In this document: piece after piece, positions 1 through 15,300 of the stretch | Position numbering within the stretch: position 1 is the stretch's first letter | Layout of the letters: every line of letters begins with the position of its first letter | Assembly: GCF_036365525.1 (NCBI RefSeq) | Contig: NC_090401.1 | Coordinates: 30,711,036-30,775,035, forward strand | Reading direction: 5' to 3' | DNA length: 64,000 nt | Source: Heterodontus francisci | Lineage: Eukaryota | Position numbers and translations under genes: made by a program | The notes under the pieces: model-generated | What the model saw: the letters and a program-made list of their open reading frames with translations, nothing else | The model's database searches: none | What the model was told of the DNA's origin: nothing

Positions 1-1984
1 CGAGGGGAACCTCACCTCAGCCCTTCAGAGAGCACCCCAACCTCCTCTTCCCCCGGCTCTATTTAATGGTGCTCGGGCAATTAATTGCCTGGCGCAGGGG
101 CCCCCATTCCTTTAAGGATAGGGTTCCCGCCTCCCAGAGCTGCTGACCAGTCAGAGGGCCGGCAGCTCAGTAGTATCAGCAGCAACACCAGGAGCGGTGG
201 CCACTTCCAGTACAAGCTGCCCAGGACCAGGACCAGCTCTGGTGCCCGGGACCTCAGGTAAGTTAATGAAGGATAGCCAGAACAATTTGAAAAGGGAGAT
301 CATGCTTGACTAATCTAATTGAATTTTTTGATGAAGTAACAGAGAAGGTTGATGAAAAGAATGTGGTGGATGTTGTTTATATAGATTTTAAGAAAGCGTT
401 TGATAAGGTACTACATAAAAGGCCGGTTAACAAAATTGAGGCTCATGGAATAGGAGGGTCAGTGTCCAATTGGATAAAAATTGGCTTAAGGACAGAAAGC
501 AGCGTGTTGTGGTGAATAGTTGTTTTTCAGACAGGAGGATGATAGACAATGGTGTTCCCCAAGGGCCAGTGCTAGGACCTCTGCTTTTTTTTTTACTATA
601 TATAAATGCCTTGGATCTTGGAATAGAGTAGAATTTCAAAATTTGAATATGACACCAAACTTGGAGGTGTGGCAAACAATGAGGATGAAATGAACTGCCT
701 GCAACAGGACACAGATAAGCTAGCAGAATGAACAGAGAGGTGGCAGATGGAATTTAATACTGACAAGTGCGAGGTGATGCATTTTGGCAGAAGGGAAAGG
801 CAATATATAATTCATGGCACAGTTCTGAAGAGTGTGCAGGAACAGAGGGGCCCATGGGTGCATATCCATCGATCTTTGAAGATGGCAGGACATATTGAGA
901 GAGTGCTTTGCAAAATATTTGGGATCTTTGGATTCATAAATAGTGGCATTGAGTACAAAAGCAGAGAAGTTATGCTGAAACTTTATAAAGCTCTGGTTAG
1001 GCCCCAACTAAAGTATTGCATCCAGTTCTGGTCCTCACACGTTAGGAAGGATGTGAGGGTCCTTGAGAAAGTACAGAGGAGATTTACCAGAATGGTTCCA
1101 GAGATGGCCGGGGGGGTGGGGGGGGGGGGGTTGGGGTTTAGTTACAAGGCTAGGTTGGGAAAGCTGCTGTTGTTCTCCTTAGAACAAAGGAGATTGAGGG
1201 GAGATTTACTAGAAGTGTACAAGATTATGACAAGCTTCGATAAGTTAGACAAGGATGTTCCCATTAACTAATAGTACAATGACTATGGGACACAGATTGA
1301 AGGTTTTAGGCAAGAGATACAGGGGGAATAAGAGGAAGATCTTTTTTGTGCAGCGAGTGTTAATGGCCTGGAATACGCTGTCCACAAGGGTAGTGGAAGC
1401 GGAGACAATCAATGACTTCAAAAGGAAATTGGATGGCCACTAGAAGGAAATAGACAGGGCTACAGGGATCAAGCAGGGGAGTGGGACTGACTGGATAGCT
1501 CTGTGGAGAGCCAGCATGGACTCGATGGGCCAAATGGCCTCCTTCTGTGCTTTAAATGACTGTATGACTCGATGTCTCTAGAAGTGTGACAGGGTCGCCA
1601 GGACCAGTACGACAGGCCTTGGCGAGGGGTGGGGGAGGCTAGTCATTGAGGGCAAGGTGGGGGGATTTTTGGAGGGGCAGCCTTTGCTGCCGGGGGCACT
1701 CTGTGGACCACAGATTGCCCACGGAGGAGGCCACCTCCAAAAGACCCCCGGAGACTACCTTGTTTTACTGGGTGACTTCCGCACATGGCATTCAACCAGC
1801 GGCAGCAGGAAGAGGCCCTTAAGGGCCTGAATTGGCCTCTGGGCGGGAAAGCTGTCTTCGACCTTTCCCTCCCCCAACAAAATCACATGATGAGGGGAAG
1901 GTGACGGGTTCTCCGCCTGCCGTTGCTATTTTTGGGGCCCCCCACCTCCATTTCTGTACCTAGGGGACCCATAAAATTCTGGCC
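1..1984. mobile_element. GC-rich PIF/Harbinger-type MITE (left end outside window), interrupted by a CR1 insertion
   Basis: Right end ATAAAATTCTGGCC (1971-1984) resembles the AAAATTCAGCCC-type terminal inverted repeat (TIR) of other copies here; internal motifs (gagctgctgaccagtcagagg, ggaagaggcccttaag) are shared with the elements at 24.5, 34.3 and 55.8 kb. Confidence 0.6.
284..1570 (+). mobile_element. CR1 LINE, 5'-truncated (RT and 3' tail), frameshifted
   Basis: ORFs 306-515 (DVVYIDFKKAFDKV), 747-1271 (LYKALVRPQLKYCIQFWS) and 1255-1443; CR1 3' tail gggccaaatggcctccttctgtgc...tatgactc. Confidence 0.95.
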
Positions 1985-3020: not shown

Positions 3021-4103
3021 AGTCAGCCAGTGACAACTCATATGCGTCCCCTAGTGAGAATTTCAAGATGATCATTAGCAAAAGTTTGAAACCAGGTTGT
3101 CTGTCATTCGGCTAGTTCAGGAAGAAAAAATGTGACACAGAGAGTCACCATCTCAAGGAGGAAGGAAGGGAAACACAGAACGGGAACATATCAAAAGGCA
3201 CACTGTGGAGGAACATAAGATTGAAATGCCATTTTCAATGGAAAGTAGGGGAATGCTCATTAGGCTGTGTAGTTAACAACGCACTTATGAAATTACAGCC
3301 ATGTGTGATTTGAAACCATGCAAATTCTGAGAATGAAAATTCCTTAAAGCACGTTGGGTTTTTTTTAAACAGAGGAAAAATTTCACCCCACTGATCTTCA
3401 GAGAAATTTAAGAGCATGTCTCAGAAATTAAATGTACTACATCAAAAGCTAATCAAATTGTCAGGTACAAAAAACCCTACACTCCAGCAAAGCAGTAAAT
3501 GAAAGTCATAACTTACTACAGAACATGATACAGGTTCATAAATAAGTCATGGTGTTTATATTGCTCTTTGTAATTAGAGCAAAGCTTGTGTTTGTGTTTT
3601 CTTGTGTAGTAATAAGACAAAAGATGTAGCATCTTTATTACATTGTTAGGTTTGCTCTGCAGAGTTTTTATTGTGTACATTCTTCCTCAAAGTGGTTGGA
3701 ATGATATGCTTCCATGTCCATATGTTAAAAGGGATCCTCACCTATGAAGTTTCTTCTACTCTACAAATAATTGTCCAGTAACAAAACTGTAGGAAGCCAT
3801 TGCTGTATTTTTTCAAAAGATTATATCTATAAATGGAAACGGGAGTGCTTTCTTAATCCTGAAGGTTAAAACAATTATTATGCAGATTAGGAAATCTTCA
3901 GGGGCACAACCAAACATTGAGGTTCTTATGGTACTTAAGATGATTCTTTCACATGCAATTGTATTCTTTGTATACATGTATTCTTCCAGTGTACCTCATT
4001 CTACCATGAATGGACATTCAAATATTTTGCAACATACACCATTGCAAGCATTGGTCTATTCCCAAACCACCCACACGTATTAAGCATGTATCAGACCACA
4101 TCT

Positions 4104-5278
4104 CCAAGAAACCTGGTGACAGGGTTTATTGTGAAAGAACGAGTTGGTGATGCAGAGGTTATGATAGGTACACAACTCAAGCAGTCGCTGTCCATTCTCA
4201 TTCATCCTTCCAATGCCATAGCGCCCAAGGCAGGAGGGCCATGAGTCATGGTCGGCCCCAACCCTGGCATTAAAGTCCCCCAGCAGGAACAGATGTTCGG
4301 TATTGGGGACGCTACTAATGATATTATGGTCTTTAGCTTCAGGTGGGGAGCAGAGTGTTGGAGAATAGATGCTGAGTAGGTGTACTGGACCAGAGGCGGT
4401 GAGCAGTCGGATGGACAGTATGCGTTCTGAGCCACTTGAGGTTGGCTCTATCATGCTGAGCAAAGAGTTTCTGATGGCGAAGCCCACTCCATGCTATCTT
4501 GGTTCTTCAGGATCCCTACCCTGCCAGTAAAAGGTGTAGTCTTGCTCTCTTAGAGATCCGCTCGTAGGGAGGCGTGTCTCCTGAAGTGCTGCAATGTCTA
4601 CATTGAGTCGACTGAGCTCGTTGTTAATGATGGTGGTCTTCCGAGAATCGTTGATTTGTGTAAGGTCTTCCGACAGGCCAGGACACATAGTTCTGATGTT
4701 CCAGCTTGCAAAACGAAGGGCTGGTACCTTCTTTCCTTTTTTTTTCGTGCTGTTTGGTGCGGTGTTGCAGTCAACTTTTCGGGCAATGACCCTGAGCTCC
4801 AAGCACCCATTGAAGCAGGTGGACTGTGGCGGGACAGAACCTTATTGACTGGGGGCTTCCCGGTTTGAGGCGGGCGGTAGCTGTCCAGTGAGGTGCGATG
4901 ACCTCTCCCACCGACAAAGGCAACCCGTGGCGCCCAATCTCTACGCCAATTGAGCTGGACTTATAACCCGTAACTGCTGCCTTCCGTGTTGTTTCGGTCG
5001 CTGTAAGGTGACTATGGAGTGACCTCTCCATGGCGCATGCCTGGGCGAATTTATGGAGGTTGTGAGTTGCCCAAGAGTCAAAAGCCCCCTCTCGGCCTTT
5101 CTGGTGGGGTCCAAAGGAGTGCAGAGCATGACGTTTGGCACCGGCATGGCTGCAGGAACTGCCGGAAACATGCCAAAGGTGACACATGACCGCCTACGGG
5201 GTTCCGCTCCGGATTTTCTGTTAGGGTTTATTCCGTTCGCCTTGAACTCTCCAGAGATGCCCACAAGGCAGTGGGTTT
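4104..5278 (-). mobile_element. RTE 5' UTR and AP-endonuclease N-terminus (inverted segment)
   Basis: ORFs 4494-4802 (RFASWNIRTM, VDIAALQETRL) and 4080-4487 (LLGDFNARVG, GRMNENGQRLLELC) carry APE motifs of RTE-clade LINEs. Confidence 0.92.
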
Positions 5279-5284
5279 GTTGCG

Positions 5285-5475
5285 TGGAGGGAAGGAAGTG
5301 CGAGGGGGAGCTGGGAAGGGGGCTGCAGGGGAAGGGGGTGCGGGGGGAAGATGGTGCGAGGGGGGAGCTGGGAAGGGGTTGCAATGGGGGGAGGGGGTAG
5401 GGGAAGAGGGTGCGAGGGGGGAGCTGGGAGGGGGGAGTGGGGGGGGGAGGGTGGTGGTGGGAAGGGGGTGCAGGT
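5285..5475 (+). repeat. G-rich degenerate tandem repeat (G-quadruplex-prone)
   Basis: Recurrent gtgcgagggggagctgggaaggg unit with many runs of three or more G. Confidence 0.8.
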
Positions 5476-5639
5476 AATAAAACATTTCATCAGTTCCCAC
5501 CATCCCAGAAGACCTCGCTGTGCCTGGTGTGTTGGTTGCTGCTGTGTTTAACAGGATTCCTCATAAGGATTACTCATGGAGATGACAAAGGGAAATGGTT
5601 CATAACCCAGCACAAAACCACTGCCACACATCAATTGAC

Positions 5640-5700
5640 ATCAGCCTGGGAGAATGTTACCAGTGGAGTCCCACAGGGGTCTGCTTTGCAACCTGTTTCA
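5640..5700 (+). mobile_element. Short CR1 RT fragment inside the captured segment
   Basis: Translates SAWENVTSGVPQGSAL, the CR1 RT GVPQGS motif. Confidence 0.7.
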
Positions 5701-5732
5701 TATCTTCATAAAAACGTTGCAGCCAGGAGTCA

Positions 5733-5927
5733 CAGCTCATCCGCGTCCTCCGGGAGGTGGGCGACAGCCTTGGGCGCCAGTATCAGCAGAAATTCGCCAA
5801 CATTGCGCTGCAGATGCGCTACGAGCCGCACATCTCCCGCGGCCACTTTGAAATTGTGGCCAAGGAGCCGTTCTGCGCTGGAGTCAACTGGGGCCGGGCC
5901 GTGGCTTTTTACGTGTTCGGGGGCATC
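5733..5927 (+). pseudogene. Bcl-2-family gene fragment (BH3 through BH1)
   Basis: Frame 5712-6080 reads LIRVLREVGDSLGRQYQQKFANIALQMRYEPHISRGHFEIVAKEPFCAGVNWGRAVAFYVFGG, colinear without gaps with BCL2 [59 protein letters not shown]. No BH4 or BH2; in-frame stop upstream at 5709. Confidence 0.88.
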
Positions 5928-6419
5928 TTTTTCTCAATGCTTCCCCTCTGTACTAGGTCTTATTACCCTAGGGTTCCGCTGCTCCTTCCTCTCTGCCTCT
6001 CCTTCCTCTCTGCCTCTCTGCACTGGACTTACCGCACGCCGTGGCCGCGGACGCTCTGGACGATGAAGACAACAGGATAGAAGATCAGAGTATCACCGGC
6101 TGTACTTTGCAATGTTGTCCAGTAGAGAAGGGTAGCCCAGGCGTCCAGGAAACTGGATGTCAATTTCAGCAAAATTCAGTGCTCAATGAAGAAAGCAAAG
6201 AGCAGGTATGGCTGGGAGAGGGCAGTGGGCCCAGGTAACATTAAACTAGCTGTTAACTTGTAGTTAGGGCTACAATGTACTGATTAAAGAGCCAGGGGAA
6301 TTCAAAGAGTTTAAGAGGGTAGATTGGGGGAGAGAGCACTAAGAATGGGAGCAGATGGCCATGAATAGAGTTGCAAAGCAAGGGAGCTTCCTAGGGAGCT
6401 TGCAGTCCAGGAGCCATCT

Positions 6420-7030
6420 TGGATCATATGTCAGCCAAGAGCGACGTCTCAATTCATTCCATCTTCGCTGCCTCTGGAGAATCTTTGGCATCAGGTGGCA
6501 GGACCGTATCTCCAACACAGAAGTCCTCGAGGCGGCCAACATCCCCAGCTTATACACCCTACTGAGTCAGCGGCGCTTGAGATGGCTTGGACATGTGAGC
6601 CACATGGAAGATGGCAGGATCCCCAAGGACACATTGTACAGCGAGCTCGTCACTGGTATCAGACCCGCCAGCCGTCCATGTCTCCGCTTTAAAGACCTCT
6701 GCAAACGTGACATGAAGTCCTGTGACATTGATCACAAGTCGTGGGAGTCAGTTGTCAGCGATTGCCAGAGCTGGCGGGCAGCCATAAAGGCGGGGCTAAA
6801 GTGTGGCGAGTCAAAGAGACTTAGCTGTTGGCAGGAAAAAAGACAGAAGCGCAAGGGGAGAGCCAACTGTGTAACAGCCCTAACAACCAATTTTATCTGC
6901 AGCATCTGTGGAAGACTCTGTCACTCTAGTATTGGCCTTTATAGCCACTCCTGGCGCTGCTCCACAAACCTCTGACCACCTCCATGCGCTTACCCATTGT
7001 CTCCCGAGACAAGGAGGCCAAAGAAGAAGA
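6420..7030 (+). mobile_element. RTE LINE 3' end (RT C-terminus, terminal zinc finger, (AAG)n tail)
   Basis: ORF 6355-6975 contains RLRWLGHV and CSICGRLCHSSIGLYSH; very similar to the copy at 31427-32474. Confidence 0.95.
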
Positions 7031-7504
7031 AGACCACATCTACACATGGACTAACCATACATACCAAAGATAAACCACATCACACCAAATACCTGGGTAA
7101 TGAAGGTTGTGCAGTATCACAAGCCAATCATTTATGCATGTCTCAAATTATATATGGGCATACATGAACGCATAAACAATAAAAATCACTTAAAAATTGT
7201 GTCCAACTAATCAAGCAAACATGCCACTATGATATTTCAGTTAGAATGTATAAAAGTTCTGAGTTAAGTCAGCTTAATGGTGCCAATTATGCAATACATT
7301 GTAACATGTGGAGCCAGTGAATCAGGACAGTGTATACAAATATATGAAAGGACAAAAAAAAACAGTTGATCAATCAAGCCTGTCATGGTATAACTTACGC
7401 ATACCATGGACCTCCTTACCACCAACCAGCTGCTCAAACTCCTGGGAGGGGTACATATGTGAATATGCAAACAATGGCAATCATGTAGTAGCAGAATCCA
7501 ATGC

Positions 7505-13384: not shown

Positions 13385-15300
13385 GCTAAATTGGGGCATG
13401 TAGCACCTTTTTTAGGTGCTGCGCGGCCACATGAGAATCGAATATGGGGTCCAAGATGCAGGTGCACACTTCCAATGGGAATTGTTTAAGACGGCATCTT
13501 GGTAAAGGGGTTTGTACGGGTGCGCCTAACGACTGCCAGTTACATGCAGATGCTGGTTTGACAATGTTGTCATTTTCATCTTCCACACTTCAGCCAACGT
13601 CCTGTCTTAACCTCACACAGCTGAACTTGACGTTAAATGGAATGAAGGATCCCTTACCACTGCCATTTAAATGGATCATGAACTACTTACAGCTTAGTTG
13701 CTGGATTCTTTTATTCTGGCTGCAGGTGCAATTGTATTTGTTTTTGGAACTTCTTTATACTTGGTTAATGTTTCAGCAGTCTACAGGAAGTTGTCTGGCT
13801 GGTGCTGAAGTTGCTTTTTGATCATTTAAAGTCTTTTGCTGGAAAAAATTGCTTCCAGAGCAGACTCGAGGGGCCGTATGGTCTACTCCTGATCCTTATT
13901 TCTTATGTTATGTTCCAGACATGGGTAGCTGGCAGGGCCTCCTCTGGGAATTATACATGACTGGGCGAATGAATGAGATGACGCAGAGCAGGACAAACTG
14001 CTAAAAGAGGGAGTGTGGGGCGGAGGAGTGCTCTCAGCAGAAGACCATATCCACTGAGAGTCTTCAGGGAGCAATTCTTTTACCTACTTTAGCAAGAACC
14101 AATGCTAGAGACATCTTTGCTTCATCAAAGAGGTTGTGTGAAATCTGCTAACTGCTGCAGTCACAACTGCAACCTCAAAGCAGGGCAAGGACCGCATTGC
14201 CTGTGGCTGTTAAGGTTACTGTAGCTCTTAACTTTTATGCATTGGCTCCTTGCAGGCTGCTGCTGGAGATACTAGTAATATCTTGCAGTTTGCAATGCAC
14301 TGCTGTATGAGGAAGGTCACTGAGGCTCACCAAACACTTTCACCCCATTCCCTTTTGCCACAGACAAGCAACTGGAGCGAGTAGGAGGGTTTGCATGGAT
14401 TGAAGGTTTTCCCAGGTATAGGGTACCATTGACTGTAAGCACATTGCCTTGCATGTGGCTCATGTGAACTCTCCTATTTTCATGAACCAAAAGGGATTCC
14501 ACTCCCTCAAGCTGGTGTGTGATCACAGGCAGAGTGTCATGCAGGTGAATGCCCGTTATCCTGGCACTAATCACAGTTCCTTTATTCAGTGCCAGCCCTC
14601 TTCCACCTGTATTTCAACCACCATGACAAGTCAAAGGCTACTGGGCAACACAGGTTATCCACTCACAGAATGGTTCATGACTCTAGTGCAGAACCCAGGC
14701 ACAAGTGCACAGCAGGCCTGTAATGAGAGTCACGCTGCCACATGGCATATTATAGAGCACATCATTGGCATCATCAAGCCACGCTGCTGTTGCCTGGACC
14801 ACTCTGGAGGAGCCCTGCAGTGCTCAGCTGAGATCAGCTCTGCTCAGATTTGTGGCAGTATGCTGTACAACCTGGTTGTTACGAGGGAACAGACCTTTCT
14901 ACCACTGATCAGGCGAGAAGCTGAGGAACTGGAGCAAAAAGAGGAGGAGGAAGAAGTGAAGGAGGAGTTGGTACAACAGGAAATGGTGGCACAAAGAAGA
15001 AGGAAGGCTACAACATTAACAGTCCATTTCTGCCTGGGGTCTACATGATTAGAACCTTAACCACATCTCCCCATTCAACAAAAGTCCCACATTCCTTACC
15101 TTTCCTCTATCACTGACCATCACATCACCCTCTTGCTGGCAACACAAAAATGAAAACCACCAGAAAACGCATTTCCCAATTCAATATTATAAATTCAAGC
15201 GGGGAGCTGTTCTGTTGGCACTTCACCACCCAAAGCCACTGCTTGCATTTATTTACCACCTAAAGTGACATTGGGTGAATAATATGCTCACCCCAAATAT
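13385..15300 (+). mobile_element. PIF/Harbinger DNA transposon remnant with decayed DDE transposase
   Basis: ORF 14449-15048: NQKGFHSL..VCDHRQSVMQVNARYPG...LLGNTGYPL...NESHAATWHIIEHIIGIIK (DDE_Tnp_4-like); upstream LPVAVKVTVALNFYA near 14197. Ends approximate. Confidence 0.85.
13860..13912 (+). mobile_element. About 53-bp CR1 tail insertion within the Harbinger element
   Basis: gactcgaggggccgtatggtctactcctg...ttcttatgttatg flanked by the direct repeat TTCCAGA. Confidence 0.7.

Follow-up and report, generated by a model that had tools for sequence, protein, structure and literature searches.

Host first exons joined to the 5' end of a retroelement have been described in primates. The human subfamily SVA_F1 carries exon 1 of MAST2 and the chimpanzee subfamily pt_SVA_D6 carries exon 1 of STK40; they comprise 84 and 94 copies, respectively, according to the available sections of PMC6139936. 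Chimeras of an mRNA with the 5' end of LINE-1 are also known from humans. The available part of PMC13174262 reports 17 of them, mostly single insertions, and 15 of the 17 have no intronic source copy, the same pattern as found below for BCL2 of a shark. Target-site duplications of RTE elements are mostly 10-12 bp long and start with A, and the elements have an A-rich tail (PMC6007223, as far as its available text goes).

The stretch analysed here (the window) comprises 64,000 nucleotides of the shark Heterodontus francisci (NC_090401.1, positions 30,711,036 to 30,775,035). It contains a copy of a LINE whose 5' untranslated region (UTR) includes a piece of BCL2 in antisense orientation. We consider it probable that this arrangement arose by serial exon trapping through splicing, followed by inversion, and that the BCL2 piece is carried in the LINE 5' UTR as a non-coding passenger. 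None of the papers listed in literature searches describes this LINE family or a mosaic 5' UTR of about 1.6 kb made of host exon pieces.

Anatomy of the insertion and of the LINE family

The element copy in the window is bounded by an 11-bp target-site duplication, the left copy of which (4093..4103, plus strand) recurs as the same 11-mer at 7031..7041 (plus strand). This one duplication encloses both an inverted 5' part of the LINE (4102..6423, minus strand; element positions 1-2348 of 4952; 92% identity to the full-length copy L052) and an upright 3' part with a (GAA)n tail (6427..7033, plus strand; element positions 4355-4952; 91% identity to L052), which makes them a single insertion. Two to three bases are shared at the internal priming site (4101-4103), a case of microhomology. 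The breakpoints lie at 2348 and 4355 of the element with 2.0 kb lost between them, and such a gap, with breakpoints that are not close to each other, is unlike simple twin priming. Breakpoints do adjoin in the inverted copies L065, L018 and L004, where they are 2-44 bases apart in the element. A 5' inversion was present at 8 of 20 window-type loci, in a sample with 1.5-kb flanks that favours copies retaining the 5' end. Automatic search of seven other copies found no clear target-site duplication. The window copy, 5'-inverted and missing 2 kb, is dead. Two further copies, L003 and L055, show clean internal deletions of 1.5-3.2 kb with both ends upright; these could be spliced element RNAs.

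Read on the minus strand from 6423, the element consists of a distal segment, the antisense BCL2 piece, a 229-base insert, C-rich repeats, the core UTR and the ORF. Its 5' end (6413..6423, minus strand) carries a CAAGATGGC motif, presumably of the YY1 type, and 14 of 20 copies begin no more than three bases from here. The distal segment includes, in sense to the element, the end of exon 1 and six intron bases of a SIMPL-domain gene (6027..6068, minus strand; 93% identity over 43 bases to host G000:C3:147639176-147639218; PF04402), which we take to be IRAK1BP1. For the remainder of 5926-6423 no donor was found by Pfam, PDB or motif search. A 17-bp tandem duplication (5983..6017, plus strand), identified as private by repeat search and comparison of copies, changes the reading frame after the Bcl-2 piece. 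The 229-base insert (5504..5733, plus strand; joint 5504-5734) occurs only in the window's subfamily; part of it (about 5596-5694) resembles a CR1-type reverse transcriptase, with 36-42% amino acid identity to other LINE copies. It is followed by a C-rich short-period repeat (5284..5474, minus strand; G-rich on the plus strand) whose families D1-D4 vary between copies, by the core 5' UTR (4842..5283, minus strand), common to all subfamilies on comparison of copies, and by the start of the LINE ORF (4102..4841, minus strand). The latter encodes the endonuclease and is broken in the window copy, with a match to Exo_endo_phos that is weak here and strong in L053. Elsewhere in the window there are broken reverse transcriptase frames (291-1443, plus strand), presumably of the CR1 type, and a DDE_Tnp_4 match (14422-15045, plus strand; E 7e-13) representing a piece of a Harbinger-type transposase or nuclease.

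Full-length copies of the LINE are about 4.95 kb long and code for an endonuclease and a reverse transcriptase. In L053 an AP endonuclease (PF03372, E 9e-12) precedes the reverse transcriptase (PF00078, E 6e-32); the reading frames are broken in individual copies. Named relatives of the endonuclease carry the label 'craniofacial development protein 2-like', which we assume to be typical of RTE endonucleases. The (GAA)n tail and the 11-bp duplication beginning with A in the window copy agree with the RTE features given in the available text of PMC6007223. The carrier appears to be an RTE-type LINE, apparently autonomous. The top named relatives of the endonuclease (L053:2844-3773) outside the species come from sea urchin, amphioxus and crustaceans, at about 56-64%, and the 120 matches listed include no other named shark. 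Horizontal transfer of the LINE is a possible explanation for these marine-invertebrate relatives, and so, equally, are unannotated shark copies.

The earlier note on this DNA, made from the letters alone, implied a single capture. Judging from exact matches, the window copy is a member of a family with at least 113 further copies: a 29-base BH1 motif was found 114 times in the genome, once in the host gene, with no match for a control. The motif was present in 21 of 40 fetched element copies, from which about 200 or more BCL2-bearing copies are estimated. The fragment does lie in a retrotransposon, as had been claimed, but it is not cargo specific to this copy; it is a fixed feature of the family and runs antisense to the 5' part of the element itself. 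When the host genome was searched at the DNA level, 1409 first-look candidates emerged, a figure that includes flanking repeats and is not the BCL2 copy number; the best 40 were scored and all had at least 86% identity. Counts favour well-kept copies, since only the best 40 candidates per search were scored. In a genome search with PF00452, 150 of 290 candidates were scored, all of them above the cut-off, and 30 fetched loci comprised 21 element copies and nine host-type genes.

A tree of the core sequence, for which 64 of 77 loci were long enough, gave no order for the older subfamilies. Diagnostic core changes were confined to the window's subfamily, and remodelling has therefore been fast relative to point mutation. 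Contigs of two other organisms cover the stretch, and one of them spans the junction specific to the window's subfamily with two differences in 99 bases, so that the family predates at least one species split.

The BCL2 piece and its donor

At 5712-6080 an open frame of 122 codons encodes LREVGD and NWGRAVAFYVFGG. Residues 13-74 match positions 1-63 of the 100 positions of PF00452 (E 5.6e-10) with 40.1 bits, above the curated cut-off of 31.4 bits, and the top matches of a PDB search with this frame were BCL2 constructs. The Pfam match and the single duplication around the insertion bear out the recognition, in the earlier note, of a Bcl-2 fragment with BH3 and BH1 inside a retrotransposon. It is not a complete Bcl-2 fold: homology is confined to 192 bases, BH4 and BH2 are absent, as the note had stated, and so is the C-terminal membrane anchor. 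The stretch is also CpG-rich as described, with an observed/expected ratio of 0.96 compared with 0.29 for the whole window.

On alignment, 5734-5925 (plus strand, antisense to the element) is a 192-base piece, reaching from BH3 to BH1, of the first coding exon of the host's BCL2 (88% identity to G000:C2:70329768-70329958; PF00452). The host exon is intact (G000:C2:70329595-70330080) and extends from the ATG through BH4, BH3, BH1 and BH2 to the GT donor. The protein it encodes does not differ from the one labelled BCL2 of Heterodontus francisci at NCBI, and the next BCL2 exon lies 168.5 kb away. In a tree of 19 rows the window piece sits among chondrichthyan BCL2. A divergent chondrichthyan paralogue or a viral Bcl-2 had been suggested as donor, and neither can be upheld. 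Identity to the host BCL2 is 88% over 192 bases, and the next paralogue reaches 74% over 58 bases; a viral origin is ruled out by nucleotide identities of 88-96% to the host exon and by nesting within chondrichthyan BCL2, in a tree that had no viral sequences. The divergence from BCL2 that had been read as the mark of a distant donor is no such mark, for in two older subfamilies only two of 180 bases, both at silent sites, depart from the host exon. A retroposed BCL2 mRNA was likewise ruled out: the exon-exon joint is absent and the bases after the donor are not those of the next BCL2 exon. Besides BCL2, the host genome has two Bcl-2-type exons that are presumably BAK-like (L026 and L048; G000:C25:33843166 and C18:51773654), the one on C18 appearing more diverged, and three more intact Bcl-2-family exons that are divergent from BCL2 and BCL-XL (L023, L024 and L028; G000:C38:9264668, C38:28977891 and C37:25626844). 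No host gene around the window was found in 150 of its 175 non-repeat frames of at least 62 amino acids, a screen that short exons would escape.

The coding capacity of the piece was judged from changes common to at least 70% of 20 copies, over 138 replacement and 42 silent sites. Family-wide changes in the Bcl-2 frame number 10 replacement and 3 silent (dN/dS about 1), compared with 4 replacement and 8 silent over 591 codons of the LINE ORF in the same lineage (dN/dS 0.15). The two differ with a Fisher p of 0.047, or of 0.009 when the 10:1 subfamily-specific changes are used. Neutral drift of the Bcl-2 frame beside a constrained ORF suggests a source element that was producing its own protein at that time. 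The first Met of the window frame falls after BH3 and no ATG lies ahead of BH3; together with the neutral drift this agrees with the expectation that the fragment is most likely non-functional. The BCL2 piece likely yields no protein. Over 60 tested Bcl-2 codons an in-frame stop was found in just one of 20 copies, and two full-length copies keep the frame open over 164 codons; such a near-absence of stops can arise by chance in copies as young as these. A Leu-to-Pro change ahead of BH1 is present in 18 of the 20. EPF, thought to be a possible copy-specific change, is a family-level one (18/20 copies), whereas GRAV is indeed private (1/20). The hydrophobic stretch said to form an in-frame tail before TAG does exist, although it is not terminal, for 19 further residues precede the TAG. 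Its first part, VPLLLPLCLS, is family-wide, and everything from FLSASL onward is the product of the private 17-bp duplication. Nor is there a usable acceptor in the ttgcag before BH3: 14 of 20 copies have TAG as the next codon, and the CAG of the window is private.

It might be thought that the many CpGs of the piece reveal a recent capture, as had been proposed. They are as expected of copies 3-6% diverged that inherited a CpG-island exon, and do not date the capture at this locus. CpG transitions make up none of nine fixed changes in the BCL2 piece, against 77 of 136 copy changes, and the LINE ORF behaves alike (1 of 22 fixed changes against 248 of 1001 copy changes). The idea that the BCL2 piece in particular retains CpGs was therefore rejected; their retention characterises the source lineage. 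Contigs from three runs that we guess to be RNA cover the stretch, partly as the host BCL2 transcript; they give neither strand nor level.

Probable exon capture by splicing and its alternatives

The host exons captured by the LINE are GC- and CpG-rich. For five of six donor genes the piece stops exactly at the host GT donor, which is as splicing predicts. BCL2 ends there in all four copies that reach the donor (three sense, one antisense), and none of three non-host loci with the BH2 end of the exon continues into the intron. Sister subfamilies carry pieces of the first coding exons of UBIAD1 (PF01040), a QSOX1-like gene, TUBGCP4 and RASSF5, all in sense orientation and ending at the donor in 2/2, 23/24, 14/14 and 11/14 copies, respectively. 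The sixth piece, the 43 bases of IRAK1BP1 in the window, runs six bases beyond the donor. On the element side, 7 of 30 copies that lack BCL2 have CAG ahead of the site where BCL2 joins, and at the RASSF5 site 5 of 9 other copies show an unspliced form with CAG.

BCL2 is found in both orientations. Sense copies include L073, L074, L078, L079 and L090, and the window's subfamily and two more of those sampled have it in antisense. In L073, L074 and L090 the sense piece ends exactly at the donor and is joined to the acceptor segment, L090 keeping only six BCL2 bases. The outer end of the antisense piece in L072 is that of the sense copies, and at six loci the BCL2 piece begins at the same outer base. 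Antisense copies rejoin the acceptor segment six bases downstream of the sense junction, by way of a 20-base filler. Upstream of the acceptor segment, L103-L114 represent a subfamily with a shorter sense BCL2 piece and then a 61-base insert, and in L260 (G000:C6:25089126) a sense BCL2 piece precedes the RASSF5 piece in a rearranged order. SLC35E3, considered as donor of the acceptor segment because of a likeness, found no confirmation in a search, and no other gene emerged: all 30 fetched matches were element copies and another 20 of 20 continued into the element.

The most likely course of events would begin with transcription of BCL2 exon 1 from the host's CpG-island promoter and splicing of its donor to a cryptic acceptor AG in LINE RNA. 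The partner may have been an intronic LINE copy in cis, since lost, or LINE RNA in trans. The chimeric RNA would retain the complete LINE ORF and retrotranspose. A twin-priming inversion confined to the 5' UTR would then flip the BCL2 exon, and the geometry of the antisense junctions can be understood in this way. Because such an inversion spares the ORF, its product could have founded new subfamilies. Deletions would trim the BCL2 piece to BH3-BH1, and new 5' ends would be added, some of them in turn trapped exons, namely RASSF5 in one subfamily and IRAK1BP1 in that of the window. With each capture the element likely gained a host promoter free of methylation from which to be expressed. As the core tree cannot order the subfamilies, the order of sense before antisense rests on junction logic. 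Some observations count against this model. Copies with the acceptor segment are absent from the 168.5-kb BCL2 intron, where an antisense 3' fragment of 231 bases is all that was found, and from the 30 kb behind UBIAD1 exon 1. A source element in cis is thus unsupported for BCL2, and either that allele was lost or splicing occurred in trans. The six intron bases of IRAK1BP1 are not predicted by plain splicing, and the 20-base filler and the common outer start of BCL2 are not accounted for.

The same observations could be explained without splicing if the reverse transcriptase switched templates onto host RNAs, or if twin priming took place on them. The family inverts and rearranges often, BCL2 occurs in both orientations, fillers are present at some joints and the intronic source copy is absent; antisense mRNA/L1 chimeras have been ascribed to twin priming in the available part of PMC13174262. 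Template switching predicts arbitrary ends, however, and exact GT donor ends in five of six host pieces, together with two pieces joined where other copies have a preceding CAG, make it an unlikely explanation.

A different question is why the BCL2 piece has persisted. It could have been kept because antisense RNA or piRNAs from it reach the host BCL2 mRNA, which would make silencing costly or shift germ-cell apoptosis. The orientation is antisense in the three most-sampled subfamilies, perfect matches of at least 25 bases to the host exon exist in 34 of 40 copies, and the piece has outlasted several replacements of the 5' end. Precedents come from Drosophila telomeric LINEs and a maize model (PMC13534243 and 10.1101/777037, in their available parts). 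Fixed changes in the window's subfamily tell another story: they affect 9 of 192 sites in the BCL2 piece, compared with 8 of 455 in the core UTR and 8 of 419 silent ORF sites, the opposite of what preserved complementarity should give; the distal segment, with 13 of 266 sites, resembles the BCL2 piece. The other donors have housekeeping or signalling roles and are unrelated, and position alone explains the survival of the piece. Retention for its antisense effect is thus quite improbable. To judge from its substitutions, the BCL2 piece looks to be no longer constrained, and a passenger left by a promoter-borrowing event fits best. The most far-reaching version, to which we give little credence, would have the LINE renew its promoter by serial trapping of CpG-island first exons while inversions yield an antisense-BCL2 cassette; small RNAs from hundreds of loci would then hit BCL2 mRNA and tie transposon silencing to germ-cell survival in the horn shark.

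Insertion of an element into the BCL2 exon and acquisition of flanking DNA by read-through (genomic 5' transduction) would fit the IRAK1BP1 piece, which passes its donor by six bases, and antisense read-through from a CpG island seems plausible. It is nevertheless very improbable, for BCL2 intron sequence is present in no copy, the sense copies halt at the donor and the host BCL2 exon is intact. That the fragment is viral or from a divergent paralogue and might give a BH3 peptide, as the earlier note allowed in case of exonisation, has next to no chance of being right: the open frames speak for it (one stop in 20 copies over 60 codons, 164 open codons in two full-length copies), but the donor is host BCL2, dN/dS is about 1, Leu is replaced by Pro before BH1 in 18/20 copies, the first Met follows BH3, a TAG stands behind the proposed acceptor in 14/20 copies and no host exon was found in 150/175 non-repeat frames of the window.

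Comparison with known systems

Replacement of LINE 5' UTRs is a known phenomenon, yet one seldom sees where the incoming sequence originated. In the shark six donors can be recognised, mostly with exact splice junctions, and unspliced, sense, inverted and trimmed intermediates all survive in one genome with the core almost unchanged. Promoter capture by exon trapping thereby becomes testable in an apparently autonomous LINE outside mammals. There is also a practical side: with well over a hundred loci above the Pfam cut-off for Bcl-2, counts of apoptosis genes in the shark will be inflated and the mapping of BCL2 reads confused. Should antisense small RNAs indeed reach BCL2 mRNA, the gene-capture conflict of flies and maize would have a vertebrate counterpart.

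The Drosophila telomeric LINEs (TART-A with nxf2, piwi and aub) resemble the shark element in carrying host fragments of 140-235 bases with 76-95% identity in non-coding parts. Their captures are mostly of piRNA-pathway genes with small-RNA evidence, whereas those of the shark are unrelated CpG-island first exons with donor ends (PMC13534243, available part). With RTE-clade (BovB-like) LINEs the element shares the endonuclease and reverse transcriptase, the A-rich microsatellite tail and an 11-bp duplication starting with A, but it differs from those covered in the available text of PMC6007223 by the 1.6-kb mosaic 5' UTR built from pieces of host exons.

Human L1 chimeras are similar in having sense first exons that end at donors, lie before long introns and are joined to near-full-length LINEs; the antisense cases have been ascribed to twin priming and promoter co-option has been proposed (PMC13174262, within its available part). 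Unlike these, the shark chimeras gave rise to subfamilies whose copies number from tens to more than a hundred. In this they are like SVA_F1 and pt_SVA_D6, where a GC-rich first exon was likewise joined at its splice donor to the 5' region of a retroelement, the capture founded a subfamily and more exons were added upstream (PMC6139936, available sections). SVA, however, is non-autonomous and restricted to primates, while the shark carrier is an RTE-type LINE with its own ORF under purifying selection; moreover, the latter has drawn on at least six donor genes, and its BCL2 piece was inverted, trimmed and amplified in antisense. The shark element works like SVA_F1 and the L1 chimeras but is neither SVA nor L1.
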